DNA from: an uncultured Clostridia bacterium
GTDB lineage: Bacteria; Bacillota; Clostridia; Oscillospirales; Ruminococcaceae
Assembly: GCA_947626165.1 (NCBI GenBank)
Contig: CANQRG010000003.1
Span: 8,375-72,374 of the forward strand
Direction of reading: 5' to 3'
DNA: 64,000 nucleotides
Part shown: positions 8,166 to 60,172 of the stretch, piece by piece
Layout of the letters: the number at the start of each line of letters is the position of its first letter
Numbering within the stretch: position 1 is the first letter of the stretch
Position numbers and translations under genes: made by a program
The notes under the pieces: generated by a model
The model's input: only the letters and a program-made list of their open reading frames with translations
Told to the model about the DNA's origin: nothing
Databases searched by the model: none

Positions 8166-8206
8166 TTCTTGCTTCTTGTTTCTTGCCTCTTGCCTCTAGT
8201 ATAGCA
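8166..8206 (-). repeat. Partial copy of the intergenic repeat family (GCAAGA-word module)
   Basis: The reverse complement reads ctagaggcaagaggcaagaaacaagaagcaagaaa, the same word set as 26240-26280. Confidence 0.5.
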
Positions 8207-8242
8207 CAAAAATTTTTAAAAATAAAGTATTTCTTAAAATTC

Positions 8243-8271
8243 TTTACTTTTTGACCAAAATTAAGTATAAT
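8243..8271 (+). promoter_or_regulatory. Putative sigma-A promoter of prfB
   Basis: TTTACT, 17 bp spacer, TATAAT, located 34 nt upstream of the start codon. Confidence 0.45.
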
Positions 8272-8304
8272 AAATATTATTAATTTTATTGTTCGGAGAA
8301 AAAT

Positions 8305-9405
8305 ATGATTATTTTAGATGAAATAAAACAAGAGCTTGAAAGCTATAAGCCTAAACTGTCAGAGCTTTATGATGTCTTGCAAATAGACGACAACAAAATC
8401 AAACTGAAAAAGCTTCAAGAAAAAACACTTGAAAGCAATTTCTGGAACGATGCTGACAACTCACAAAATGTATTAAAAAAAATCAAATCACTTGATGAAA
8501 TTATAAAGTCATACACAAATTCTAAGGAAAAGTATGATGAAATTTCTCTTATGCTTGAGCTTGCTGAAGAGGACGAAGATGAAAGTCTTGCCCTTGAAGC
8601 CAAAACAGAGCTTAAAAAGTTTGCAAAAAAACTAGACGAATTAACAATTACCACCCTGCTTACTGGCGAATATGACCAAAACAATGCGATTGTCTCCTTT
8701 CACCCAGGAGCAGGCGGAACAGAGGCTCAGGACTGGGCAGAGATGCTCCTTAGAATGTACACAAGATACGCTGAAAAGCACGCTTTTAAAGTTACAATGC
8801 TTGACTATCTTGAAGGCGGAGAAGCAGGAATAAAAAGCGCAACTATTCTGATCGAGGGCAGAAACGCCTACGGTTTTTTAAAAAGCGAAGCTGGCATTCA
8901 TCGTCTTGTAAGGATTTCACCTTTTGACAGCTCAGGAAGCCGGCATACCTCCTTTGCGGCAGTTGACATAATGCCGGAAATTGACGACAGCACTTCTGTT
9001 GAAATAAGACCTGAGGATATAAAAATGGACACATACCGTGCAAGCGGAGCAGGAGGTCAGCACATAAACAAAACCGATTCAGCCGTCAGGATAACCCATA
9101 TACCTACAGGCATTGTATGCTCGTGTCAAACACAGAGATCACAGCACCAGAACAGAGATTACGCTATGAAAATGTTGAAAGCTAAACTTATTGAAATCAA
9201 AGAGCGCGAGCATTTAGAAAAGATAGAGGACATAAAGGGCGAGCATAAGGAAATCGCCTGGGGAGCGCAGATACGCTCTTATGTGTTTATGCCGTATACT
9301 CTTGTTAAGGATCACAGAACAAACTGCGAGGTCAAGAACGTAGAATCTGTAATGAATGGAAATATAGAACCGTTTATAGACGCATATTTGAAAAAAAATC
9401 AGTAG
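8305..9405 (+). CDS. prfB: Peptide chain release factor 2, uninterrupted (no programmed +1 frameshift)
   Basis: Has the SPF tripeptide (RISPFDS) and the GGQ motif (SGAGGQHINK). 366 aa in a single frame from the ATG with a GGAG RBS. Confidence 0.95.
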   Translation: MIILDEIKQELESYKPKLSELYDVLQIDDNKIKLKKLQEKTLESNFWNDADNSQNVLKKIKSLDEIIKSYTNSKEKYDEISLMLELAEEDEDESLALEAKTELKKFAKKLDELTITTLLTGEYDQNNAIVSFHPGAGGTEAQDWAEMLLRMYTRYAEKHAFKVTMLDYLEGGEAGIKSATILIEGRNAYGFLKSEAGIHRLVRISPFDSSGSRHTSFAAVDIMPEIDDSTSVEIRPEDIKMDTYRASGAGGQHINKTDSAVRITHIPTGIVCSCQTQRSQHQNRDYAMKMLKAKLIEIKEREHLEKIEDIKGEHKEIAWGAQIRSYVFMPYTLVKDHRTNCEVKNVESVMNGNIEPFIDAYLKKNQ

Positions 9406-9422
9406 ATTAATTTTTATATTAT

Positions 9423-9452
9423 ACAAGCGTTCGGAAAAATTCCGAACGCTTG
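9423..9452 (+). terminator. prfB terminator
   Basis: Hairpin acaagcgttcgg-aaaaatt-ccgaacgcttgt. Confidence 0.7.
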
Positions 9453-9577
9453 TATTACTTCTTGCAATTATCCATTATCAATTGTTTAGCCCGCCGTTTA
9501 TCAAGTTATAACATTTATCAAACTACCCAAAGGCGGCACTGGATGCAACGTCACCGTTGCCTTCGCTGGTCTTACCT
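9453..9577 (-). repeat. Inverted single unit of the intergenic repeat family
   Basis: The reverse complement contains gtaagacc...ggcaacggtgacgttgcatccagtgc (identical to 4666-4690), then a core variant, then caattgataatggataat. Confidence 0.75.
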
Positions 9578-10027
9578 CTATTCTCTAAAATACTTTTCAT
9601 CTAAATTCCTTGCGGCGAGCTCTACTAGCTCAACACAAGGTCTTTTTTTATAATAACTATCTGTTCTCAGCTCAGGAACAGGATTATCTACTCCCTTTTT
9701 AGACAGCCCCAAAAGCTCCCTGCATATTATTGAACCGTTCTGCTGTCTGAACTTCTCAGCAATTTCCTGAATATTTTTATAGTGCTCTGCTTTAGCTTTG
9801 TTATCCTTTGCATCATAACCGCCCTCTAACATTCCAAGCACCATAAATGAACCTGTCAATGCACCACAAACCTCTCTCATTCTACCCATTCCTCCGCCAA
9901 ATGACGAAGAAATTTTAAGTGCTGTATCTAAATTGAGTCCAAGCTCCTCGGCATAAGCGCCAAAAACCGCCTGAGAACAATTATATCCCCTTTTAAAAAG
10001 CTCTACAGCTTTTTTCGAGTGATCCAT
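9578..10027 (-). CDS. C_GCAxxG_C_C family redox-type protein
   Basis: YNCSQAVF...EVCGALTGSFMVLG...ICRELL...PCVELV matches the C-GCAxxG-C-C pattern. Confidence 0.8.
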   Translation of the reverse strand: MDHSKKAVELFKRGYNCSQAVFGAYAEELGLNLDTALKISSSFGGGMGRMREVCGALTGSFMVLGMLEGGYDAKDNKAKAEHYKNIQEIAEKFRQQNGSIICRELLGLSKKGVDNPVPELRTDSYYKKRPCVELVELAARNLDEKYFRE

Positions 10028-10171
10028 AAGTTATCCCCTTTCAAAAAATTTTGATATTATGTATTACAATATATTATATACTTTGAAAGCGGAAAAGTAA
10101 ACTTTGTTTTTTGCTAACAATTATAACTGTAACCAATACGCTTATTTAAGAGATTAATATAATTAGAAAAT

Positions 10172-41200: not shown

Positions 41201-41245
41201 TGGTTGCGGAGGCTGGATTTGAACCAACGACCTTCGGGTTATGAG
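41201..41245 (-). repeat. att direct repeat 1 (45 nt copy of the tRNA-fMet 3' half)
   Basis: tggttgcggaggctggatttgaaccaacgaccttcgggttatgag, identical to 48924-48968 and 60096-60140. Confidence 0.95.
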
Positions 41246-47345: not shown

Positions 47346-48779
47346 ATGGCTTATATTCAAGAGCGTAAAGATAAGAACGGTAATGTTATTTCGTATTCAA
47401 TTAGAGTATTTAAAGGCTATGCTCCTGACGGCGAACAGCTTAAACCATATACCGCAACATTTAAGCCGGATAAGAATAAAACCGCTAGACAGAATGAAAA
47501 AGCGTTAAATAAATTCGTTGTAGAATTTGAAACAAAATGCAAAAGCGGACTTGCTTGTGATAATCGACAGACGTTTGCTGAGTATGCCGAGTATGTTTTG
47601 TCTCTTAAAGAAAGAAGCGGAGCAAAGCACACAACGCTTGTTAGATATAGAGATTTGCTGAAAGTAATTAACAAAAATATTGGTTTTATGAAGTTAGCAG
47701 ATATAAGACCGCAGCATTTAAATGATCTGTATGAATTACTTTCAAAGAGTGGTACACGCAGAACTAAAGACAAAGCCTGCTGTAAAATTGATTTTAAATC
47801 ATATTTGAAAGAACAAAGGCTAACACAAAAAGAACTTTCAGAGCAATCAGGCGTACCTTGTAACACAATGCGAGCTGTTATAAATGGAAAAAGCGTTTAC
47901 CTTTCAACTGCTGAAAAGCTATGCAAGGCTCTTGATGTACCTGTCAAACAGCTATTTAATGTAGTAACTGATAACAGACCTCTTGCAAATAAGACTATAA
48001 CGGAATATCACCGTTTAATATCAACTATAATGGCTCAAGCTGATAAAGAGCTATTAATACCATTCAATCCTGCTCGTAAGGCAACACCACCTAAAATAAA
48101 GCGTGAAAGTGTTAATTATTTTCAAATAGAGGACGTTGAACGCATAAGAAACAGTTTAGAGGACGAACCTATAAAATTTAAAACAATGGTACATTTATTA
48201 TTAATTACAGGTGCAAGAAGGGGAGAAATTTTAGGTTTAAAATGGAATTGTGTAGACTGGAACGCAAATCGTATCCATATTTGCAGGAGTATTCTTTATT
48301 CTTCAGATATTGGCATTTATGAAGATACTACAAAGACGGAACAATCTGATAGATTTATCACATTGCCATTAGAAACGATGGAGTTGTTGCGAGAATATAG
48401 AAGGTGGTATTTGCTTCAAGCTCGTATGTATGGAGATCAATGGCACAATACAGGATATTTATTCTTTCAGGAGAAGGCAAGTAATGCAGGAAAACCAATG
48501 CACCCAGATACTTTAAATGATTGGCTTTCTGAATTTTCAAAGCGTTATAATCTACCGCATATCAATCCACACGCTTTCAGACATACAATGGCAAGTATAC
48601 TTTACTTCAATAATATTGACAGCGTAAGTATAAGCCATAGACTTGGACATAGCAAAATAAGCACTACAACAGATATATATAGTCATATAATGAAAGAAGC
48701 TGACAAGCAATCAGCCGAATGTATAGCAAATGTTATCCTCAGACCGAAGGATAAATACAAACAGAGAAAAGCAGAATAA
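47346..48779 (+). CDS. Tyrosine recombinase/integrase with an inserted XRE-type HTH
   Basis: Catalytic residues in TGARRGEILGLKW, HAFRHTMAS and LGHSKISTTTDIYSH. Residues ~148-206 (LTQKELSEQSGVPCNTMRAVINGKS...AEKLCKAL) form an extra HTH. Confidence 0.9.
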   Translation: MAYIQERKDKNGNVISYSIRVFKGYAPDGEQLKPYTATFKPDKNKTARQNEKALNKFVVEFETKCKSGLACDNRQTFAEYAEYVLSLKERSGAKHTTLVRYRDLLKVINKNIGFMKLADIRPQHLNDLYELLSKSGTRRTKDKACCKIDFKSYLKEQRLTQKELSEQSGVPCNTMRAVINGKSVYLSTAEKLCKALDVPVKQLFNVVTDNRPLANKTITEYHRLISTIMAQADKELLIPFNPARKATPPKIKRESVNYFQIEDVERIRNSLEDEPIKFKTMVHLLLITGARRGEILGLKWNCVDWNANRIHICRSILYSSDIGIYEDTTKTEQSDRFITLPLETMELLREYRRWYLLQARMYGDQWHNTGYLFFQEKASNAGKPMHPDTLNDWLSEFSKRYNLPHINPHAFRHTMASILYFNNIDSVSISHRLGHSKISTTTDIYSHIMKEADKQSAECIANVILRPKDKYKQRKAE

Positions 48780-48923: not shown

Positions 48924-48968
48924 TGGTTGCGGAGGCTGGATTTGAACCAACGACCTTCGGGTTATGAG
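48924..48968 (-). repeat. att direct repeat 2 (junction between elements A and B)
   Basis: Identical 45-mer. Confidence 0.95.
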
Positions 48969-49087
48969 AAATTTCAGTCCTTGTTTTTGATGTTTTATGT
49001 TTATTTATGGAGAACACATAATATCAAAATATTAATGTATTTACGCAGTTTTCAACATTTCATAAGACGTTAACAAATTTAATGTTG

Positions 49088-49106
49088 TTTAGAACTTTTT
49101 TAGAAC
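49088..49106 (+). repeat. Arm-type repeats TTTAGAAC x2 (11-bp spacing), distal end of element B
   Basis: Copies at 49088-49095 and 49099-49106. A matching pair lies at 60009-60027. Confidence 0.6.
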
Positions 49107-49316
49107 AGTGGCTACACTTTTATAACTTCTGCTATAACATAACTTAAAGATAAAAACTTTAAAAGAAATTAAAGTATTTAATAAAAAAATAAATACTTTA
49201 ATTTCTTTTTTCTATAACTATTTAATTATTTAGTAATGTTTATCTTATTATTAAACTGAAACTATAAAACATGGTTATAATATTGGTATTACATTTCCAA
49301 TATAAAATTCAGTTGT

Positions 49317-50507
49317 TCAATCATTTTGTTGTTCGGGAAAATCAACAAAGCCCAGAAAGAGATGTCTTAAATTAAACAATGCACTGATTAAATTTTCACA
49401 ATTATATTCTATATCATAATTATCGAAACAACATCTATCAATTACTTCTAATCCACTACTAGGAATTCTATTCCCGGTTATAATTAGATTATTACCATAT
49501 TTTTCTCTATGATAATTTAGAGTATCGCATAATACAGGTATATCATCATTATAACAAGGGGTAAACTGTTTTAATACTGTAAGCTTTTCATATTTAGAAG
49601 CACTTATAAAATAATCAGATAACACATCACCCAAAAGGATTTGATATATATTTTTAAAATATATTATATTAGAAGTAAGAAATGATATATCCACTTTATG
49701 ATTATTATCCACTGAATTAAATATTATTCTTAATTTAACACTACCATCAGCCTTTATTTCCATAAAGTTGTGCAAATTTGATGGAAGAGCAGATATTCCG
49801 TCCGATATTTCTGCTTTTCCAATACTTATTAAAATAGAATTTGCCAATTTTGATATGCTAAATTGATTACTAATACCTTTAATATAATCTGCAATCCTTT
49901 GAAAATCTGTATTAAATAAATAATGATTGATTTTTGATAAATTCGAGGTGTTCAAAGAAAATCCCATATCCAAATATCCGTATATGTTTCGTGGAATTAA
50001 TGAATCGTTAATGTCTTCAATTGTTATTTTTTGAAGAATTCGTTTATCGTTTTCTTGCTTTTTATAGAAAAGCTGTGTTAATTTTGAAGAATCATTAATT
50101 ACATAGGATCCAGAAGAAACCCTTTCAAATATTTTTCCCCTATTTGTTATATATGGTGGGTCAATTCCTTCTTCGATTTTTATTACTAAAACTATCTTAT
50201 TCTGTGGTGATTCAAATTTTCTAATGTCAAATACAGGAATAGGTGTAATAGAATCATGAATAACACTATTTATTCTTTCTTCATTCCAATCCTGACATCC
50301 GATAATTTTTTTGTCATCGCTAACTCCTAAGAAAATATATCCACCATATGTATTAGCAAAAGCTGATATTTCTTTCATCAATTTTTCTGAGCTTACTCTA
50401 TCATCCTTATATTCAAAGAAAAAATTTTCTTCGTCACCCAATGATATTTGTCTTTCAATATCCTCGAAAGTTAGTTCATTCCATAGGTGTTTATTTATAT
50501 TTACCAT
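49317..50507 (-). CDS. AlbA_2 (Schlafen-type) domain protein with an uncharacterised C-terminal half
   Basis: Start moved to the ATG at 50507 (GGAGGG RBS). EENFFFEYKD...LMKEISAFANTYGGYIFLGVSDDKKIIG...VLVIKIEEG.DPPY matches my memory of the AlbA_2 pattern. Confidence 0.7.
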   Translation of the reverse strand: MVNINKHLWNELTFEDIERQISLGDEENFFFEYKDDRVSSEKLMKEISAFANTYGGYIFLGVSDDKKIIGCQDWNEERINSVIHDSITPIPVFDIRKFESPQNKIVLVIKIEEGIDPPYITNRGKIFERVSSGSYVINDSSKLTQLFYKKQENDKRILQKITIEDINDSLIPRNIYGYLDMGFSLNTSNLSKINHYLFNTDFQRIADYIKGISNQFSISKLANSILISIGKAEISDGISALPSNLHNFMEIKADGSVKLRIIFNSVDNNHKVDISFLTSNIIYFKNIYQILLGDVLSDYFISASKYEKLTVLKQFTPCYNDDIPVLCDTLNYHREKYGNNLIITGNRIPSSGLEVIDRCCFDNYDIEYNCENLISALFNLRHLFLGFVDFPEQQND

Positions 50508-51024
50508 TTTTCCCTCCATGGACTTATAATTAATAATAATTAATTACACTAATAAATTGCACAGTGGTTATATTTCTAATTTAAATATATCATAAATATA
50601 AAATTTGTCAACTTGTTTAATAATGCAACAAAGGTGCCTTATTTAAATTGACGTTGATGAATAAAATCAAGGGGAACTATTTCCATAAGCTAAGCCTGAT
50701 ATCTCGATATTGCAATTTACTTAGATTACTTTTACAAAAAAATAATTCCTGTTATGATTATAAGGCAATATATTTTACTTATTTATTTTTAAAACTAGAT
50801 ATAATTGATAACTTCTTTATCGTCTAGCTAGTTATATCTTTTATAATAGATTTCAATGATAAAAGTGTTATATTGATGTTGAATATATTAAAACAATTAA
50901 TATTTTATAATAAAGTATCAAAGTGTTAAACGTATTTAGATGTCTTAATAAGCAAATTAAAAGAAAATCTCCCCTATGGTAAATTAATAATAGTACCATA
51001 AGGGAGACATTTTTATATAAATTT

Positions 51025-52923
51025 TTAATTAAATTCTCTCCATGGGATTTGACTTGCAGTAACTTTTCTGTTAGTTCTTTTATCATAAATATGGTAATTA
51101 CCATTTTCTAAATCACTTAGAGAACAAATTTCAGCCGTAGTAATACCATTATCTCTTTCAATATAATCATGAGTTAAACCGTGAACTTTAAATACTTTTA
51201 TGCCAAGTAGACCGGAATCAATGTATTCATAATTTTTCTTCTCACTAAATTTTGAGCCATTTTTTCCTGAATTATATTCATTATCATTTGCAGAGCCACC
51301 ACCTAACGCACTTAGTAATATAACAGATAATATAACTCCTACTATTAGAAGAAAAATAAAAATTAGAAAAAGAGGTACTGCATTTTGAATAATTAGTAGA
51401 AGTAAAGGAAGTGCACCTAAAGCTAATATAACTGTTACCAAGAAAAAGAAGAATTCATCCCAATAACTCGAACTATGGGATAATATAAAAAACATAATTA
51501 CACCTATAATAAAAGTAATAAAAGTTACAATTACGATAGATTGCATTATTTTTTCATTTGATAGAAAAGAATATGAATCATTAGGTAACACAAATCCATT
51601 CTCGTCTCTTACAATTCTTAGATTACATAAAATTTCAATGATTATGCATGTTAAACATGAAATCCCTATTAGAGTTAAAGAAATAATCATTAAAACTTTC
51701 TTATATTTTTTTGATTGTTTAAAATAGATTATTAGCCAGTAAATAAAGAAAATTCCTATTAAAATCCCAAGAATAATTAAAACTGGAACACTGTAAAAAA
51801 TATGTACATTACCTGTAGTTAATTGACTTTCTAAATTATTTAAGCTCATTCCATTCTTTTTTAAATAATGAACCTGACTTGTAAAACCTCCTGACACTAT
51901 AAATATAATTAATGCTACAGCAAAAGTAATTACTGAAGTCGCAATAATTAATTTAGGTGTTATGTTTAAAATTTTGTTCGTAAAATCTTCTGTAAATAGT
52001 TTTTCTTTTAGTGGAATTCCTTTTTTGTTTCTATCTTTTTTAAGTATTTTAGTTTTATTTTTTATTGTAGTAGAAGTATGTTTAATATTATTGCTATTAC
52101 TGTTATCATTATAATTACCAACCAATTTTGAATAAAGAAGTTTACCTCTTTTGACAATTCTATAATTTATATTATCTAATAGTTGAGAAAGTTCTTCAAT
52201 AGTTTTAGGTCGGCTTTCTAAAGTTTCATTTCCTTGTATAATGGGTATATGAGAGCTAACTAAAGGATTTATTTGCAAATCACTTGTAAGATAATCTTCA
52301 AGTTCAAATTTTTCAGTATATAATTTCAAAGTGTTTTGATCCCAGTCTGTGCTTTTACGAAGCCATATCATTGATAAGTCAAAATAATCATTCCATGCAG
52401 AGGCTCTAGCCTGATTAAAACTTTGTCTTTCTTTAGTAAAAGGATTTACCTTTTTAGGTACAAGCGTAAGATTGCCTATAGTATGTGTTAATCCTGCAAA
52501 GGTATTAAATTTATTAAATATATCTTCCGACAAATTTTTTATTATTATTTTCTTTAACTGTTTGTAGTTTGAAAGTAAAATTGATGCAGAACTTGTTACT
52601 ACATACGAAATTCCTAAAACTTTCTTTATATCGTTAAGACACCAATTATTTAGTGCCCAAGCAAATGTTATCCAAAAGGAATTCATAGTATCCATTCCCA
52701 TTAATATATTCTGATTTCCTACATTTATGTATTGGAAGCTATCTCTAATTTTATTATCAAATCCCCAAAGCTTATTATAAACTAATTTTGCATAATCACA
52801 TCTATCGCAATCAAAAGGAGATGTATCAGATTTATATAGTAAGAACTTATATAAATTATCTACTTTGCTTTTTTTACATTGCTTTAATTCATTTTTTAAA
52901 TCATAATCATAATTCTTAAACAT
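51025..52923 (-). CDS. Large polytopic membrane protein (632 aa) with an N-terminal ~300-aa soluble domain and a C-terminal ~90-aa soluble domain; unknown function
   Basis: Long ORF in a very AT-rich region. Six or more TM segments between residues ~325 and 545. I recognise no catalytic motif with confidence. Confidence 0.75.
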   Translation of the reverse strand: MFKNYDYDLKNELKQCKKSKVDNLYKFLLYKSDTSPFDCDRCDYAKLVYNKLWGFDNKIRDSFQYINVGNQNILMGMDTMNSFWITFAWALNNWCLNDIKKVLGISYVVTSSASILLSNYKQLKKIIIKNLSEDIFNKFNTFAGLTHTIGNLTLVPKKVNPFTKERQSFNQARASAWNDYFDLSMIWLRKSTDWDQNTLKLYTEKFELEDYLTSDLQINPLVSSHIPIIQGNETLESRPKTIEELSQLLDNINYRIVKRGKLLYSKLVGNYNDNSNSNNIKHTSTTIKNKTKILKKDRNKKGIPLKEKLFTEDFTNKILNITPKLIIATSVITFAVALIIFIVSGGFTSQVHYLKKNGMSLNNLESQLTTGNVHIFYSVPVLIILGILIGIFFIYWLIIYFKQSKKYKKVLMIISLTLIGISCLTCIIIEILCNLRIVRDENGFVLPNDSYSFLSNEKIMQSIVIVTFITFIIGVIMFFILSHSSSYWDEFFFFLVTVILALGALPLLLLIIQNAVPLFLIFIFLLIVGVILSVILLSALGGGSANDNEYNSGKNGSKFSEKKNYEYIDSGLLGIKVFKVHGLTHDYIERDNGITTAEICSLSDLENGNYHIYDKRTNRKVTASQIPWREFN

Positions 52924-52987
52924 TATTTTTTCTCCCCATTTATTTTATACAAGCAGTATATCCTCAAACTTTACTTTTAGAATTCAC

Positions 52988-54592
52988 CTAATTTGCATTT
53001 TCATTTTTAAAACTTGATAATATTAAAATTACTTCTTTTTCTTCTTGCTTAGTGAATTTCCCATCTGGTGCATCTGCAATTAAAGAAATATAACCACTAT
53101 ACCAAAAAGCAAATTCCCCTTCATATGCAGTAGTTACACTGTCATCAATGCCTAATCTTGATTTAGGCAGTACAGCAAACGATACAGAACCGTCAATATC
53201 AGTAAAATCGGTATCATTTAGCATGTCTAAAGTACCTGTCAGTTTTAATTTAGCAACGGCAAATTCGCCCAAATCTCTGTAGTCGGCAGCTTGTACATAA
53301 CCGGGAATAAAACTTGATTCAGCTACTTGTGAAACTTCAACACGTTTCATTAAGACGTGCGAACCACCACCTAAATTTCCTTCTTCAACATCACAAATAT
53401 GTGAGTATTTAATTTTAACTCCACGTTCATTTGTAAGAATTATTGTTTCTCCTGCTGATGTTACGCTATTTTGTGAAATCATCCAATTACTTGGATATGA
53501 AATAGTAAAGTTTGGGTATGTGACAGCGTTCTTTTCGCTAAATTTTGTTGTATATGAATGCTTTAATACAATATCTTTTGCATAAGTTGTATTATTGTTG
53601 GTATTAGAGACTTGATTCTCTATTACTTTTTCTCCTAATTGAGCAAATATATGATTTTCTGTTCCATCTGTTTTAATTCTATACAATTTGTCACCTAAAT
53701 TGTAGTAGAGCCAATCTCCATGTAGTTGTAACTCTGGCAAACCATCTATATTTGATAAAAGTCGTTTTTCTGTACCATCAGTCTTTATTTTATATATTCC
53801 CCCATCAGATACATAATAAATCCAACCATTATTTTCAAGTATACACATAACATGCGCTTCGGCAACAAGTTGTTTTTCTGTGCCATCTGTCTTCATTTTA
53901 TACAGATCTTTATTGTCATAATCGGCAAAATAAATCCAACCGTTATCTACAATCATATAGTCTGTCCTTCCATCATAAATAGCTTGGGGGTCAGATCCGT
54001 CTAGTTTCATTTTGTAAATTTTTTCGTTTTCTGTATAAGACTCTGTATCAAAAAAATAAATATAGCCGTCCACAATATTTAATGTATAGCCACTTGCTAC
54101 ATTGTTATTATATATCCGTTCTTTACCTGAACCATCAAAATTCATTCTGTATTCACTGCCATTATAAATTTTCCCATCAACTAAATGCACACCGCCCCTT
54201 ATGTCCTCAGCGGCTATCTGTTCATAATATGTGCCATCTGTTTTTATTCTATATATACCTAGGTCTCTGAAATAAACCCATTCGTCTATTACATTGATAT
54301 CATATACCCCATATTCGGAATTAAAAATTTTTGTTTTTTCTGTTCCGTCTTCTTTACATTTATACAATCCGTCATCCAAACTATAAAATAACCATCCATT
54401 TTCTTCGTCAACTTGACCATCGTTTGCAATATTATAGTTTGTATTACCAACTCTTCCTTTTTGCATTTCCTTAGTTGATAAAATATCATTTTTTGCATTA
54501 TTATCTTTTCCTGTATTTGCTTTACAAGCAGTACATCCTATTGATAATAGAATAAAAAGTGAAATTAATAAAATTCTTTGAAAATGTTTCAT
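52988..54592 (-). CDS. Lipoprotein with a seven-repeat beta-propeller (DUF5050-like) and an unknown C-terminal domain
   Basis: Lipobox LLSIGC. Seven Y(K/R).K.DG(T/S) repeats (YKCKEDGTEK, YRIKTDGTYY, YRMNFDGSGK, YKMKLDGSDP, YKMKTDGTEK, YKIKTDGTEK, YRIKTDGTEN). Confidence 0.8.
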   Translation of the reverse strand: MKHFQRILLISLFILLSIGCTACKANTGKDNNAKNDILSTKEMQKGRVGNTNYNIANDGQVDEENGWLFYSLDDGLYKCKEDGTEKTKIFNSEYGVYDINVIDEWVYFRDLGIYRIKTDGTYYEQIAAEDIRGGVHLVDGKIYNGSEYRMNFDGSGKERIYNNNVASGYTLNIVDGYIYFFDTESYTENEKIYKMKLDGSDPQAIYDGRTDYMIVDNGWIYFADYDNKDLYKMKTDGTEKQLVAEAHVMCILENNGWIYYVSDGGIYKIKTDGTEKRLLSNIDGLPELQLHGDWLYYNLGDKLYRIKTDGTENHIFAQLGEKVIENQVSNTNNNTTYAKDIVLKHSYTTKFSEKNAVTYPNFTISYPSNWMISQNSVTSAGETIILTNERGVKIKYSHICDVEEGNLGGGSHVLMKRVEVSQVAESSFIPGYVQAADYRDLGEFAVAKLKLTGTLDMLNDTDFTDIDGSVSFAVLPKSRLGIDDSVTTAYEGEFAFWYSGYISLIADAPDGKFTKQEEKEVILILSSFKNENAN

Positions 54593-54715
54593 ATTTAAAT
54601 TTTCCTCCTTATTTGTTTTTTATTATAATAAATAACAAATAAAATGTCAACTTAAAATATATTTATCAATTTAAAGTGGATAATATGAGGCTATACTACT
54701 TTTAGGAGGGATATT

Positions 54716-55018
54716 ATGATATATTTTGGAGTTCGACTAAAAGAATTAAGAAAAGGCAAAAATTTAACTCAACAACAACTAGCTGATAGAATGTCGTTAG
54801 TTAAAAGCTCTATTTCAGCATATGAGAAAAGTGCAAAATATCCCTCTATTGAAGTTCTTGTAAAGCTATGCCATTATTTCAATGTATCAGCTGATTATTT
54901 ATTAGGTCTTTCAGACAATAAAACTATAAAGGATTATAATTTGACGGAAGAACAGATAGAAATAGTTATGAAAATTATTGTTCAATTTCATCAACTTAAT
55001 AATCAAAAGTATAAATGA
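54716..55018 (+). CDS. XRE-family HTH transcriptional regulator
   Basis: LKELRKGKNLTQQQLADRMSLVKSSISAYEKSAKYPSIEVLVKLCHYFNVSADYLLG. Confidence 0.85.
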   Translation: MIYFGVRLKELRKGKNLTQQQLADRMSLVKSSISAYEKSAKYPSIEVLVKLCHYFNVSADYLLGLSDNKTIKDYNLTEEQIEIVMKIIVQFHQLNNQKYK

Positions 55019-55175
55019 AAGTGAATTAATTTTATCACGGCAAAACATTAGAAAATATTAAAAAATAAAGGCTTTTTTCGCTCAACTGATTGGGTTGGTT
55101 GACCTTATTATCAGTATGTATAAACTTATATAAAAAGGGATACTGTTAAAAATTTTTAAAACGAGGTGAATAATT

Positions 55176-55646
55176 ATGAGTGATTTTCCTTTTTGTTATA
55201 CAGAAGAAGAATGGCAAAAAATAAAGCTTCAATATAATACGGACTTTAAAAGATATAATAAACACATTAAATCATTTCGAGAATTAATAAACGAGATTCT
55301 TCAAGGTGAGACAGAGGGAAGCTTTGTAAGAAAAACAGGTCTAAGTCCGAATATGTTTTCGAGAATAAGAACACAAATTGATAAGACGAATCCCCCGCAA
55401 AGAAACACACTTATGTCTGTTGCAGTTGGGTATAATCTTGACTATCAGCTTACGGCTGCATTGCTTGATAGCATAGGACTTAAATTTATCCTTAGTAACA
55501 AACGTGATTATGCATATCAATTTTTATTAACAAATTGCAGAGGTAAAACTGTTGATGAATGTAATGACATACTCAAATGTTTAGGAGTTGAAGAAAAATA
55601 TTGGTTAGGAGTGCATGCAAGAAAGAAATATACTAAGTGCAATTAA
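55176..55646 (+). CDS. Hypothetical protein (156 aa), possible HTH
   Basis: GAGGTG RBS. SFVRKTGLSPNMFSRIR is HTH-like. Position is in the element backbone. Confidence 0.6.
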   Translation: MSDFPFCYTEEEWQKIKLQYNTDFKRYNKHIKSFRELINEILQGETEGSFVRKTGLSPNMFSRIRTQIDKTNPPQRNTLMSVAVGYNLDYQLTAALLDSIGLKFILSNKRDYAYQFLLTNCRGKTVDECNDILKCLGVEEKYWLGVHARKKYTKCN

Positions 55647-55901
55647 AATACACATTATTACAATTATGAGCAGGGTAAATAACTCTGCTCTTTTTATATT
55701 TTCTCGTACTTGTCATGTACGATGAAAAACTTTGGAACATACGCTATTTTGAAAGAACATGTCATAGAACAGGGCTTTTATTTACCGTTATTTCGTACTT
55801 ACCATGTATGGCACAATTTCTCCAGTTATGTTATTCTAATTTCAGACATGAGATGCATCACATTGTCGAATAATAAATTACAAACTAGGAGGAAAGTTAT
55901 T

Positions 55902-56252
55902 ATGTCATTAAAAAAACTATCACGCTTTCTATACTTTGATATAGAAGGATTTCTTGAAAAAAAGAAGCTTATGATAATTGGGATTCAGGAGTGGAAGGAC
56001 TTTGACACACAGAAGTTTCTTGGCACAAAAGTTGAGGTGGTTATTACATCTGACAAGACTGATTATGGTACGACTGGAGGGGAAGTGGTAACCAACCTCT
56101 ATGAAAAACTAACGATTAAGATACCTGCGAAGCTGACTAACATTCCAATGAATGTTGAAGTTCGGCTTGTGAATCCAGAGGCTGTTGTATATGGAGAATA
56201 TCGCAATGCTCTGAGCATTACCGCAGAAAATATTGAAATTGTCGGAAAGTAG
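55902..56252 (+). CDS. Hypothetical small protein (116 aa) of the element backbone
   Basis: Start moved to the ATG at 55902 (AGGAGG RBS). Confidence 0.6.
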   Translation: MSLKKLSRFLYFDIEGFLEKKKLMIIGIQEWKDFDTQKFLGTKVEVVITSDKTDYGTTGGEVVTNLYEKLTIKIPAKLTNIPMNVEVRLVNPEAVVYGEYRNALSITAENIEIVGK

Positions 56253-56270
56253 TCAGGCGTAAGGCGAGGC

Positions 56271-56290
56271 GTGCCCCTTTCAAGGGGCAC
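56271..56290 (+). promoter_or_regulatory. GC-rich stem-loop, candidate nick site (oriT/dso)
   Basis: gtgcccc-tttcaa-ggggcac lies in an AT-rich context, 43 nt upstream of the Rep gene. Confidence 0.35.
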
Positions 56291-56332
56291 AGCCGATGCC
56301 CTATTAACTTGATTATCAGGTGATATTATTCC

Positions 56333-57286
56333 ATGAGTACTATTAAACGAAAAATTAAAGTACCTAAATATATTGATTTACAAAAAGTTGTATTGTTAAA
56401 ATCTATGGGCAATATCAAAGAAATAGCAATTTCTGATAAACATAATTCAGGGGCTACAGTTAAACCAATTTCCAAAGATGAATATTTGCTTTATTCTACT
56501 GGCGAGGTTAAAAAGTTTGAAAATCATGCTTTAGACAGAACAGAAAACTTACGAAATTTACAAAAGACAATGCATTGTCTTTCCGATTTAATAAATGCAA
56601 ATATTTATTCTGAAAATGCTGATTTCTGTAAATTTATTACTTTTACATATCGAGAAAATATGCAAGATTCAGACAAACTTTATATTGACTTTAGAAATTT
56701 TAATAAAAGGTTTAAACGATATATGGAGAAGTTAGGATATCATTATGAATATATTATAACCGTTGAAGCACAAGAAAGAGGTGCATTTCATCTGCATGGT
56801 ATATTTATATTTTCAAAGAAAGCTCCGTTTATTGAAAATACTGTGCTTTCTGACATGTGGGGATTAGGCTTTGTATCTATTAAAGCACTTGATAAAAATA
56901 TTGATAATATAGGAAAATATCTTACTTCATATCTTACTGATTTACCTATTGATAATTCTTCAAATATCGTTCAAGAATTCATGGGTGGTGACATAAAAGA
57001 AATTTCTGTAGACGATAACAGAAAACGAATAATTAAAGGTGCAAGATTAAAACTTTTACCTGTTGGAATGCGAATATATAGGTACTCAAGAGGTATTAGA
57101 AAGCCAAAAGTTAAATCTATTTCTTATGGTGAAGCATTGAAAGAATTATCAGATAGTGGTTTTTCAAAAGTGAATGAATATGCAATAGAGATAAAGGATA
57201 TTGAACGTGATTTTACAAGTCAATATATAAAACAAACATTTAAGAAGAATATTAATACAAATAAAAAGGTCGGTGATAAACATTGA
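56333..57286 (+). CDS. HUH-type rolling-circle replication initiator / relaxase-like protein
   Basis: FITFTYREN (motif I-like), GAFHLHGIF (HUH motif), IGKYLTSYLT (catalytic Tyr motif). Confidence 0.7.
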   Translation: MSTIKRKIKVPKYIDLQKVVLLKSMGNIKEIAISDKHNSGATVKPISKDEYLLYSTGEVKKFENHALDRTENLRNLQKTMHCLSDLINANIYSENADFCKFITFTYRENMQDSDKLYIDFRNFNKRFKRYMEKLGYHYEYIITVEAQERGAFHLHGIFIFSKKAPFIENTVLSDMWGLGFVSIKALDKNIDNIGKYLTSYLTDLPIDNSSNIVQEFMGGDIKEISVDDNRKRIIKGARLKLLPVGMRIYRYSRGIRKPKVKSISYGEALKELSDSGFSKVNEYAIEIKDIERDFTSQYIKQTFKKNINTNKKVGDKH

Positions 57287-58518
57287 AAACAAAAGAACGA
57301 GTAAAAGCAGGAATAAAGCGTATTTATGAAAAACCAATTTTTCTTTTAATTCCATTACTATACGTTATAGTTTTAGGGTTTATTACACATAGAGAATTAG
57401 GAATTTTAAAAATACTATTTTTAAAGTATACTTTCATATTTATGATTATTGTCTTAGCTTTAGTGGGTATATGTTTTATAGTAAAAATAATAGGTACTCC
57501 AATAAAATCTAAAAAAATAGAAAAGGCTCTTTTAAATATTGGATTTATAGATAATTCAGGTGACAGCCCTATGTTATTATCACAAAAGAAAAGCAAAAAC
57601 GGAACTATACTTGAATTCTACTCTAAAATGATTCCACTTTCTGAATATGAAAAACATAAAGAAAAAATTGAAACAGCACTTAATTTAAAAATCATATCAA
57701 TTAGTCGGGGAAAAGATGTGAGGCATGTAATAATAAAGGCTATAAATTCTTTGACGGGAAACGAAGATATTATTTATTGGAACGACAAATATTTAAGTGA
57801 AAAAGATTTTGAGCTTGTTTTGGGCGAAAGCTATTTTGAAATTGAAAGCATTGATATTACAGTAACACCACATATTTTAATTGGCGGTGGTACAGGCTCT
57901 GGTAAGAGTAAGTTATTAAAACTTATTCTTATTGAAAGTATAAAAAAGGGAGCAAAGATTTTTCTTGCTGACTTTAAAGGTGGTATTGATTATCCAAGTG
58001 TATGGCATAAGCAGTGTAAAATTATAACTGAGCAGAAGGAACTAGATAGTCAATTATCAATAATACTTGAAACAATGGAAGAACGAAGACACATGCTTGT
58101 AGAATCTGAAACACCTAATATCAAGGAATACAACGAAAAAACAGATTCAAATCTCCCAAGAATTATCATAGCTTGTGATGAAATTGCTGAAGTACTTGAT
58201 AAAACTGGACTTAATAAAAATGAAAAAGAATTAGTTAATAAAATTGAAAGTAAAATGTCAACCATTGCAAGACAAGGTAGAGCTTTTGGTATTCATCTAA
58301 TTTTTGCAACACAAAGACCAGATTCAGAGATTTTAAAAGGGCAAATAAAGAACAATATAAGTTATCGTGTATGTGGTCGTGCTGATAAAATATTATCACA
58401 AATTATTTTAGATACACCAGAGTGTGCCAATATTATTTCTCCAAATGACCAAGGAATGTTCCTCACTAATACAGGTGTTCTGTTTAAATCGTATTATATC
58501 GAGGATAATTGTTTGTAG
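57283..58518 (+). CDS. FtsK/SpoIIIE-family DNA translocase (coupling-protein type)
   Basis: Two N-terminal TM segments, Walker A GGGTGSGKSK, Walker B IIIACDEIAE, FATQRPD. TTG start overlapping the rep stop. Confidence 0.85.
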   Translation: MKTKERVKAGIKRIYEKPIFLLIPLLYVIVLGFITHRELGILKILFLKYTFIFMIIVLALVGICFIVKIIGTPIKSKKIEKALLNIGFIDNSGDSPMLLSQKKSKNGTILEFYSKMIPLSEYEKHKEKIETALNLKIISISRGKDVRHVIIKAINSLTGNEDIIYWNDKYLSEKDFELVLGESYFEIESIDITVTPHILIGGGTGSGKSKLLKLILIESIKKGAKIFLADFKGGIDYPSVWHKQCKIITEQKELDSQLSIILETMEERRHMLVESETPNIKEYNEKTDSNLPRIIIACDEIAEVLDKTGLNKNEKELVNKIESKMSTIARQGRAFGIHLIFATQRPDSEILKGQIKNNISYRVCGRADKILSQIILDTPECANIISPNDQGMFLTNTGVLFKSYYIEDNCL

Positions 58519-58571
58519 AAAACTAATTGACTGTTTTAGAGTATTATGAAGAAAGGGAGTAGGTGTACAAA

Positions 58572-58751
58572 ATGTTGGAGAATTATCCAGATATTTTAAC
58601 TATTAAACAACTTAAAGAAATTTTAAATATAGGGCAAAACAAAGCATTGGCAATTTTACATAATGGAAAAATTCAATATTTTAGAATTGGTAGATCTGTA
58701 AAGATACCTAAGAAAGCTGTTGTAGATTATATAGAAAAATCTATAATGTAA
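58572..58751 (+). CDS. Excisionase (HTH_17)
   Basis: ILTIKQLKEILNIGQNKALAILHNGKIQYFRIGRSVKIPKKAVVDYI. Confidence 0.8.
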   Translation: MLENYPDILTIKQLKEILNIGQNKALAILHNGKIQYFRIGRSVKIPKKAVVDYIEKSIM

Positions 58752-58850
58752 CTTGACAAAACAGCCACACCAATGTTAAACTTGGGATATTATAAAGGTG
58801 TGGCTGTTGTCTTTGTTCTAACATGAAAATGTGAACGGAGGTTAAAGCCT

Positions 58851-60005
58851 ATGATTAATGGAAGTATACAACAAAAGAAAGGTAACTTATACGCAGTTTT
58901 GAGTGTACCCAAAGCAGGAGGTGGATATAAAACAAAATGGGTTAGCATGAAAATGAAGCCCACTGAAAGTAAGCGAAAGCAGAAAGCTAAACTTGATGAA
59001 ATAAGAATTGAATATAGCAATATTTTAAGTATAGAATCATTTGAAATTAAGTTTTGTGACTATATAAAGAAATGGAATGAAGAAACCAAATCTGAAAAAT
59101 CAATAACTACTTATGACGGTTACTGCCATATGATAAATAAATACTTGTACAACTATTTCGATGAAAGGGGATTGACTTTGGCAGAACTTAGAACAGCTGA
59201 TATTGAATCTTATTATCGATATCTACAGCATGATTGTAATTTATCAGGAAATACAGCTTTAAAACATCATCAAATTATATACACAAGTCTAAAATATGCC
59301 GTATATAATAGAGTTCTAAAAGAAAATCCTGCAGAATATGTCAAAAGACCAAAGAAAAGTAAAGCTAATCATGATTTTTATAATGCTAATGAGCTAAAAG
59401 AATTAATGAGTGTTGCAAAAGGCGATGTACTTGAAACAGCTATTTACTTGACAATTTGGTTAGGTTTAAGGCGTGAAGAAGTGCTTGGACTTAAGTGGTG
59501 CAACATAGATTTTGAAAAACATATTATTAAGATTTGTGAAACTGTTGTAAGAGCAAAACAAGACGGTAAAATAGTTAGCATGTCAAGAAAACGGACTAAA
59601 ACAGAAACAAGTAATCGAGTTCTTTATATGACAGATGTTATAGAGGACTATTTATTACATATAAAATATCAACAAAATAAATATCAGCTTATATGTGGTA
59701 ATAGTTATGATATCAATGATTATGTTTGTAAAAACAAATTAGGAGAACCTGTAAAGCCAGATTATATAACACATCATTTTAATGCATTACTAAAGAAGAA
59801 CGGTTTAAGACATATTAAATTTCATGATTTAAGACATTCTTGTGCAAGTTATATGCTCGACAATGGTTATAATCTAAAACAGATACAAGAACTATTAGGA
59901 CATAGCAACTATAATTTCACTGCTGATGTTTATACTCATGTGGACATAAAATCTAAACAAGATATGGCTAATAAAATATCTAACGATTTGAAAGCGGTTT
60001 ACTAG
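58851..60005 (+). CDS. Tyrosine integrase (Tn916-Int-like, with an N-terminal arm-binding domain)
   Basis: GSIQQKKGNLYAVLSV...YKTKWVS N-terminal domain. Catalytic residues in GLRREEVLGLKW, HDLRHSCASYM and LGHSNYNFTADVYTH. Confidence 0.92.
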   Translation: MINGSIQQKKGNLYAVLSVPKAGGGYKTKWVSMKMKPTESKRKQKAKLDEIRIEYSNILSIESFEIKFCDYIKKWNEETKSEKSITTYDGYCHMINKYLYNYFDERGLTLAELRTADIESYYRYLQHDCNLSGNTALKHHQIIYTSLKYAVYNRVLKENPAEYVKRPKKSKANHDFYNANELKELMSVAKGDVLETAIYLTIWLGLRREEVLGLKWCNIDFEKHIIKICETVVRAKQDGKIVSMSRKRTKTETSNRVLYMTDVIEDYLLHIKYQQNKYQLICGNSYDINDYVCKNKLGEPVKPDYITHHFNALLKKNGLRHIKFHDLRHSCASYMLDNGYNLKQIQELLGHSNYNFTADVYTHVDIKSKQDMANKISNDLKAVY

Positions 60006-60008
60006 CTT

Positions 60009-60027
60009 TTTAGAACTGTTTTAGAAT
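60009..60027 (+). repeat. Arm-type repeats TTTAGAAC / TTTAGAAT (11-bp spacing), int-proximal end of element B
   Basis: Copies at 60009-60016 and 60020-60027. Confidence 0.6.
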
Positions 60028-60095
60028 TCTCAATTTTGTTAAGTATAAAAACAAAAGCTTGACTTTACAAAACAATGCAAAATCAAGCTCACATT

Positions 60096-60172
<77 letters not shown>

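Follow-up and report, generated by a model that had tools for sequence, protein, structure and literature searches.

In the window, the 64,000-nucleotide stretch of DNA from an uncultured Clostridia bacterium (contig CANQRG010000003.1) that was analysed here, positions 51025-54592 hold a two-gene unit coding for a lipoprotein of 534 residues and a membrane protein of 632 residues. We have found that the membrane protein is built of a soluble head, a hydrophobic block and a small tail, that the head belongs to the DUF6994 family and is kept under purifying selection, and that both genes are part of the cargo of an integrative mobilizable element. What is new here is a membrane-tethered variant of a family that is already catalogued and uncharacterised. 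Tentatively, and giving the proposal somewhat less than an even chance, we suggest that the 632-residue protein might serve defence or exclusion as a nuclease-like effector tethered to the membrane. An initial annotation of this locus had described the two open reading frames (ORFs), the lipobox, the seven repeats of the lipoprotein and the arrangement of head, transmembrane (TM) block and tail in its partner, and all of these were found as described. The "unknown family" of that annotation has to be given up, as the lipoprotein is a DUF5050 protein (E 1.8e-46) and the head is a divergent DUF6994 domain (HHalign probability 99.9%).

The membrane protein and the family of its head

The gene for the membrane protein (51025-52923 in the ORF list) lies on the reverse strand, as do all parts of the two-gene unit. 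Residues 1-272 (52108-52923) make up the soluble head, which is predicted to be cytoplasmic, and are followed by a K/R-rich linker of low complexity (residues 273-320; 51964-52107) that was modelled as disordered and has 11 K/R against 4 D/E just before the first TM helix. The hydrophobic block (residues 321-540; 51304-51963) shows five hydropathy peaks, and the C-terminal tail domain of about 90 residues takes up residues 541-632 and the stop codon (51025-51303). Since the last hydropathy peak spans 60 residues, six TM helices are likely; the KQSKKYKK loop is predicted to be on the cytoplasmic side. Six helices would place the tail inside the cell; a peptidoglycan-binding CW_7 tail at the same position of a homologue (L017; L and P numbers are our own for related loci and proteins) argues that it is outside, and suggests that the C-terminal tail of the subfamily may be extracellular.

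No other part of the protein is nearly as constrained as the head. When the protein was compared with the 71%-identical homologue of a sister element (L001), the head had a ratio of nonsynonymous to synonymous substitution rates (dN/dS) of 0.097, against 0.26 in the tail, 0.45 in the TM block and 0.68 in the linker. Within the subfamily the head residues D8, K10, D38, D40, R41, T79, N81, S82, A143, H147, G150, N151, P156, N170, R173, D179, R238 and R259 are invariant, and D78 and D182 are nearly so (at least 90%). The AlphaFold2 model of the head (residues 1-272) reached a pLDDT of 94.9 and a pTM of 0.92.

No Pfam match of its own was found for the 632-residue protein at E up to 0.1, and the DUF6994 model (PF22507) did not match it even at E up to 10, short of the Pfam gathering threshold of 27 bits. 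Four relatives (P0010, P0013, P0016 and P0018) do pass that threshold, with 27.9-34 bits. When the head profile (A2) was aligned by HHalign to a profile of canonical DUF6994 proteins (A5, which includes L004_250, itself a Pfam DUF6994 match at E 1.8e-30), the match extended over 232 columns at E 1.2e-34, and the same alignment showed a helical insertion of about 45 residues in the head, at about residues 90-135. On the strength of this alignment and of the Pfam matches of the relatives, the head is, as judged by sequence, a divergent DUF6994 domain that is homologous over the whole domain. A profile of seven heads that was searched against 1.84 billion proteins retrieved 417 cluster representatives, 166 of them at E<=1e-10 and 28 at E<=1e-30. 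PF22507 was matched by 71 of 111 relatives at E up to 10 and by 60 at E up to 0.001. The acidic residues and the TIGN…P…N..R…D.FDLS motifs of DUF6994 are conserved in these 111 proteins, with D8, K10, D40, D78, T79, N81, S82 and A143 each present in at least 90%; the same applies to G150, N151, P156, N170, R173, D179 and D182, and R259 is invariant. The motifs that the window head has in common with DUF6994 are FDCD, GxDTMNSF, LTHTIGNxxLxP, FNxxR, DxFDLSL and a C-terminal R-G. It differs from the family in that a membrane anchor and a tail are added, whereas most of the listed DUF6994-like relatives have about 250-340 residues, a length consistent with single-domain proteins. The head family is rare, as it was met at 5 loci among 185,579 species genomes; no relatives were found in JGI metagenome contigs or IMG/VR, and tblastn against phage and plasmid records gave four weak matches only. 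For the 632-residue protein, PADLOC, PHROGs and NCBIfam returned nothing above noise; two matches, to YidC (17.8 bits against a cut-off of 282) and to MazE (14.6 bits), were discounted.

The only literature on DUF6994 that we found is the 2024 Pfam paper, in which the curators report that the family shows, in AlphaFold models, the minimal beta-beta-alpha fold known from HNH and type IV restriction endonucleases, with Ala in place of the catalytic His and two invariant Asp residues directed towards the putative active site (PMC11701544). The initial annotation had noted a faint resemblance to DUF1524-like nucleases in the segment FAGLTHTIGNLTLVPKKVNPFTKERQSFNQ, which is present in the protein at residues 142-171, together with the lack of the upstream (D/E)H..P motif, and both remarks hold. 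The resemblance is real at the level of the superfamily, by way of the DUF6994 homology and of a sub-threshold match to GmrSD_C (PF07510, the former DUF1524) in the window protein and six relatives. GmrSD_C is the His-Me-finger nuclease domain of the type IV restriction enzymes GmrSD, BrxU and SspE. At permissive E-values it was the second commonest Pfam family after DUF6994 among the 111 relatives (7/111). In the window protein the match joins residues 138-199 (…FAGLTHTIGNLTLVP…FNQARASAWNDYFDLS…; 52327-52512) to positions 69-128 of the 138 in the hidden Markov model (HMM), at E 0.038. It covers the THTIGNLTLVP…FNQAR segment and begins after the region in which the (D/E)H dyad is expected, and alignments A1 and A3 hold no invariant D/E-H pair 20-40 residues upstream of G150. 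Thus the window head has the GNLxLxP…N…R segment in common with the GmrSD_C enzymes and differs from them in lacking both the upstream (D/E)H catalytic dyad and the DUF262 NTPase domain. The literature, together with this weak signal, suggests that the core of DUF6994 is a degenerate His-Me-finger (HNH-like) related to the C-terminal nuclease domain of GmrSD and BrxU; the canonical catalytic His is missing from the head, in which Asp, Asn and Arg residues are nevertheless invariant.

The 24 homologues of the 632-residue protein have only the head in common. Most commonly the head is followed by four TM helices and a CxxC…CxxC zinc ribbon, while P0014 (L024) has one TM helix, a Pro/Thr linker and BspA-type LRR_5 repeats, and P0016 combines the head with a coiled coil. 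A multi-TM block and tail of the window type were found in P0001, P0002 and P0013, and the window protein shares its tail domain with these three only. A split form was also observed (L017, 8001-9718; L018; L019), in which an 85%-identical head is separated by a stop codon from the homologous multi-TM block, giving a head protein of 307 residues and a multi-TM protein of 254 residues that ends in the CW_7 peptidoglycan-binding motif. This arrangement was seen on at least five contigs and may be a functional two-gene form.

The lipoprotein and the element that carries the pair

The lipoprotein gene (52988-54592 in the ORF list) codes for a protein that begins with MKHFQRILLISLFILLSIGC, with one hydrophobic segment at residues 3-26 and the lipobox LSIGC. 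Since the lipobox and signal peptide were called by reading the sequence for these patterns, the protein is a predicted lipoprotein with a putative location on the cell surface. Its repeats, of the form Y-x2-[KN]-x-DG[TS], start at residues 77, 114, 148, 193, 231, 267 and 304, with a spacing of 34-45 residues. They lie in the DUF5050/LRP1-like propeller part (about residues 50-315; 53648-54445, with the seven YxxKxDG(T/S) repeats), in which Pfam DUF5050 (PF16472) matches residues 50-298 with 159.1 bits against a threshold of 27, and which also matches the designed propellers Scone and Cake and the LRP2 propeller among PDB sequences. DUF5050 is common among the extracytoplasmic proteins of Firmicutes. 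The last 200 or so residues (331-534; 52991-53602), which the initial annotation could not place, indeed have no match in Pfam or PDB. About 25 full-length homologues of the lipoprotein have both this C-domain and the propeller, and the C-domain is also present without a detected DUF5050 in proteins of other lengths (298-868 residues). Other DUF5050/LRP1-like propeller proteins, such as TsgL of T7SSg, share the propeller with the window lipoprotein; the latter differs from them by its extra C-domain of about 200 residues, and the locus has no type VII secretion system (T7SS) genes.

A sigma-70-type promoter, TTGACA-17-TATAAT, which agrees with the consensus at 12 of 12 positions, lies at 54622-54650, about 30 nucleotides upstream of the lipoprotein start and divergent from a helix-turn-helix (HTH) gene of the XRE type at 54716. 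The spacer between the two genes has 64 nucleotides (52924-52987), with the ribosome-binding site GGGGAGA at 52937-52931 before the second ATG, and a search for a terminator-like site between them found none. The perfect promoter, the short gap and the lack of a terminator make it well supported that the two genes form a single predicted transcription unit, as had been proposed in the initial annotation. A third cargo gene (49317-50519, reverse strand) codes for a protein of 400 residues with a Schlafen/AlbA_2 domain at the N-terminus (E 2.3e-23) and about 250 unassigned residues at the C-terminus. It lies 505 nucleotides downstream of the membrane protein gene, is outside the two-gene unit and is provided with a promoter-like site of its own (TTGACA-16-TATATT with TG, 50611-50584).

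These three genes are the cargo of an 11.2-kb integrative mobilizable element (48969-60095) in the tRNA-Met gene of a low-GC gut Firmicute. The element is classed as such on direct repeats of the tRNA 3' end that flank an integrase, a HUH Rep and an FtsK-like ATPase. On the left, the attachment-site repeat (48924-48968, forward strand) is an exact 45-nucleotide copy of the 3' part of tRNA-Met; on the right, the repeat is formed by the 3' 45 nucleotides (60096-60140) of the intact tRNA-Met itself (60096-60172, reverse strand). The backbone runs on the forward strand from 54716 to 60005 and comprises the XRE HTH gene (54716-55018), ORFs of 156 and 180 residues, the HUH Rep gene (56333-57286), the FtsK-like ATPase gene (57283-58518) and the tyrosine integrase gene (58851-60005). 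The cargo has a GC content of 26-30%, against 33-40% in the surrounding DNA. A third exact copy of the 45-nucleotide tRNA-Met sequence was observed at 41201-41245, and the three copies bound two different elements in tandem, of which the left one carries an integrase of 477 residues (47346-48779).

Rabbit-gut metagenomes contain near-identical copies of the locus, and another was found in a "Bacilli" metagenome-assembled genome (MAG) from rabbit (L010, 98% nucleotide identity). No RNA run was found to carry the locus. The sister element L001 (1-11605) has its backbone in common with the window, including a small ORF that is 90% identical to the 180-residue ORF. Its cargo starts with a fusion protein made of an extracytoplasmic function (ECF)-type sigma factor, a TM segment and an external domain, continues with the 628-residue homologue, a lipoprotein of 419 residues, a DUF5050 pseudogene with an in-frame stop that is truncated after about residue 203, and the AbiGi and AbiGii genes, and also holds an ORF of 294 residues; the Schlafen/AlbA_2 gene is absent. 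To judge from these gene contents, the cargo bay of the sister elements is a swap site.

The occurrence of the pair in other genomes, which the initial annotation had asked about, gave a divided result. An HMM of the propeller located a DUF5050 gene beside a head-family gene in the window and L010, a remnant of one in L001/L002, and none elsewhere. Intact adjacency is thus confined to near-identical copies; in L001 the gene order is rearranged and the DUF5050 gene degraded, and by these comparisons conservation of the pairing stops at the closest clade. Other homologues of the 632-residue protein often stand alone or have different partners. Extracytoplasmic binding modules are joined to the head in P0014/L024 (LRR_5) and L017 (CW_7), and the gene with the head adjoins that of a surface protein in the window, L010 and L001 (lipoproteins, in L001 also the fusion of sigma factor and TM segment), in L013 (a PASTA lipoprotein) and in L004 (a Big_2 protein); an LRR_5 protein is encoded nearby in L022. 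That a surface protein is fused or adjacent to the head family in about half of some 12 independent loci is suggestive.

A proposed tethered effector and its alternatives

In the reading that we favour, the head would be a nucleic-acid-directed enzyme of the DUF6994/His-Me-finger-like superfamily, held by an exchangeable anchor at the inner face of the membrane. There it might act on DNA entering the cell by phage injection or conjugation, and so serve the mobile element in defence or exclusion. Extracytoplasmic modules, either fused to the head (LRR_5, CW_7) or encoded next door (DUF5050, PASTA and other lipoproteins), would position or gate it. Since these surface modules differ between relatives, the DUF5050 lipoprotein would be an exchangeable accessory rather than an obligate partner. 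We count in favour of this reading the DUF6994 homology and the many invariant D, N, R, K and H residues of the head, the variable anchors on one constant, strongly constrained head, the place of the pair in a mobile element, the surface proteins adjacent to the head family, the AbiGi and AbiGii genes of L001, the restriction enzyme and helicase in L017/L018, and the WYL regulators beside the homologues of L012 and L022. The interpretation given in the initial annotation is supported in part: the hint of a nuclease holds at the level of the superfamily, and the mobile cargo and the Abi genes of the sister element fit defence or exclusion, but the specific pairing with the lipoprotein is not conserved, and nothing that was found shows abortive infection.

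A comparable design has been demonstrated for SNIPE, a GIY-YIG nuclease bound to the membrane, which cleaves phage DNA while it is being injected and is kept from autoimmunity by its tether (10.1101/2025.11.03.685801). The two proteins are alike in that a nucleic-acid enzyme, putative in our case, is anchored on the cytoplasmic side of the membrane, in their diversified other domains and in their place on accessory DNA. The likeness is one of design only, as SNIPE consists of DUF4041 and GIY-YIG, whereas the window protein has DUF6994 and neither of those Pfam domains. Furthermore, SNIPE has one TM segment and the window protein about six, and SNIPE comes from a Gram-negative host (E. coli), where its activity was demonstrated, whereas that of the window protein is only proposed here. 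A bolder form of our proposal, which we regard as doubtful, is that the head subfamily represents modular Gram-positive transmembrane "receptor-nuclease" immune proteins that would cut incoming DNA as it crosses the membrane. The enzyme would be put in place by fused modules (LRR_5, CW_7, the small tail) or by partners (DUF5050, PASTA and other lipoproteins), so as to give an analogue of SNIPE made from unrelated parts with a non-canonical, Asp-based active site. Should the head prove to have nuclease activity, the cutting of entering DNA by an enzyme tethered to the membrane, so far shown for SNIPE in E. coli, would extend to gut Firmicutes and would there use another fold and chemistry, and both DUF6994 and the recurrent WYL-DUF6994-Metallophos module described below would gain a first functional handle. 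Should it not be a nuclease, the gain would be that two "hypothetical" cargo genes are better annotated.

A number of findings weigh against a tethered nuclease that works with the lipoprotein. Head-only proteins without TM segments exist (270-307 residues), which means that membrane tethering is not obligatory, and many canonical DUF6994 proteins are short as well (about 250-340 residues). The GmrSD_C match stays below the Pfam threshold (14.3 against 23 bits) and the canonical (D/E)H dyad is absent, and the literature gave no biochemical or phenotypic data for any DUF6994 protein. AlphaFold models compared by Foldseek, a check that the initial annotation had proposed, recovered no known transporter or enzyme family and no HNH fold: neither the full-length model nor the head alone, the latter searched against PDB and BFVD, had a match at E<0.1, TM-scores were at most about 0.2, and the fold reported by the Pfam curators was not reproduced. 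PDB sequences searched with the A2 and A4 profiles returned nothing meaningful, and PADLOC 2.0 and PHROGs gave no family match, the sole PADLOC match of the membrane protein being to a 2TM effector model at E 0.072 and the lipoprotein having none. With regard to the locus, the DUF5050 gene of L001 is a pseudogene remnant, the lipoprotein homologues mostly have unrelated neighbours, those of 48-59% identity having other genes beside them, and several homologues of the membrane protein lie among housekeeping genes (L003, L011, L013, L014, L023).

The best of the other explanations, although we think it rather unlikely, is that two unrelated cargo genes happen to share a promoter, in which case the lipoprotein would be an ordinary surface protein for binding or adhesion and the membrane protein would have a function of its own. 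This would agree with an adjacency that is seen only in near-identical copies (L010 and the rabbit-gut runs), with the different gene order and the degraded DUF5050 gene of L001, with the CotJ/catalase genes, another lipoprotein or a WYL module as neighbours of lipoprotein homologues, and with the many homologues of the membrane protein that occur alone. The tight spacing and the single strong promoter speak for a unit instead, as do the surface proteins adjacent or fused to the head family in about half of the independent loci and the DUF5050 remnant that was kept near the homologue in L001.

Quite unlikely, in our view, is a transmembrane signalling device, in which a catalytically dead His-Me-finger head would bind DNA or a nucleotide and relay to gene expression the signals sensed at the surface by LRR, PASTA, CW_7 or propeller modules. 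The missing canonical catalytic His (PMC11701544) and the start of the GmrSD_C match past the DH region would suit such a role, and so would the receptor-like fusions (for example head, one TM helix and LRR_5), the frequent HTH or WYL regulators among the neighbours and, in L001, the upstream ECF-type sigma factor with its TM segment and external domain. The dense invariant acidic and Asn/Arg residues and the dN/dS of 0.10 nonetheless look more like those of an active site than of a binding surface, and neither an HTH nor an output domain could be recognised in the window protein. Very improbable is an abortive-infection effector in which the hydrophobic block itself would kill as a pore or depolariser, triggered via the head or the lipoprotein: the initial annotation proposed abortive infection, L001 carries Abi genes and PADLOC weakly matched its 2TM effector model, but that match is not significant, and it speaks against the idea that no part of the protein is less conserved or more readily replaced than the TM block, in whose place relatives have different anchors or none.

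Further observations at related loci

Among the related loci, L013 (a Lachnospiraceae MAG) holds at 8195-10111 the PASTA lipoprotein, which has 638 residues, a Pro/Thr-rich linker and four PASTA domains and is encoded 38 nucleotides downstream of a head-family member of the zinc-ribbon type. In another Lachnospiraceae MAG, a copy of the head of 194 residues (L014:9977-10561) stands among housekeeping genes; it breaks off behind the GNMLLVPK motif and is probably in decay. The lipoprotein of L001 (5776-7035) is homologous to one in L008 (5164-6414); both have about 416-419 residues, are 32% identical and belong to no Pfam family. The former follows the 628-residue homologue and the latter a DUF5050 lipoprotein; together they form a third member of a loose gene neighbourhood.

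Regulators of the WYL/WCX type recur near the head family, directly upstream of the homologue in L022 and after two DUF6994 paralogues in L012. In L017/L018 the order WYL-DUF6994-Metallophos-Metallophos is found near the homologue, beside the restriction enzyme and helicase, and in L009 a DUF5050 lipoprotein, a protein of 251 residues, WYL and Metallophos follow one another. The L009 protein was considered as a second pairing of DUF5050 with DUF6994; it has BLAST similarity at E ~1e-6 in a tiny database and sits beside a homologous WYL gene, and since neither the A2 and A4 HMMs nor Pfam detected it, it is kept as a weak hint only. Of these neighbours PADLOC matched only the WYL proteins and left the DUF6994 and Metallophos proteins unmatched. 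A WYL/WCX regulator, a DUF6994 protein of about 200-250 residues and one or two calcineurin-like phosphoesterases (Metallophos) thus recur together, at L017:4220-7409 and the same interval of L018, L004:3179-4838, L012:2593-5448 and L009:8666-11431, as a candidate for an uncharacterised defence module.

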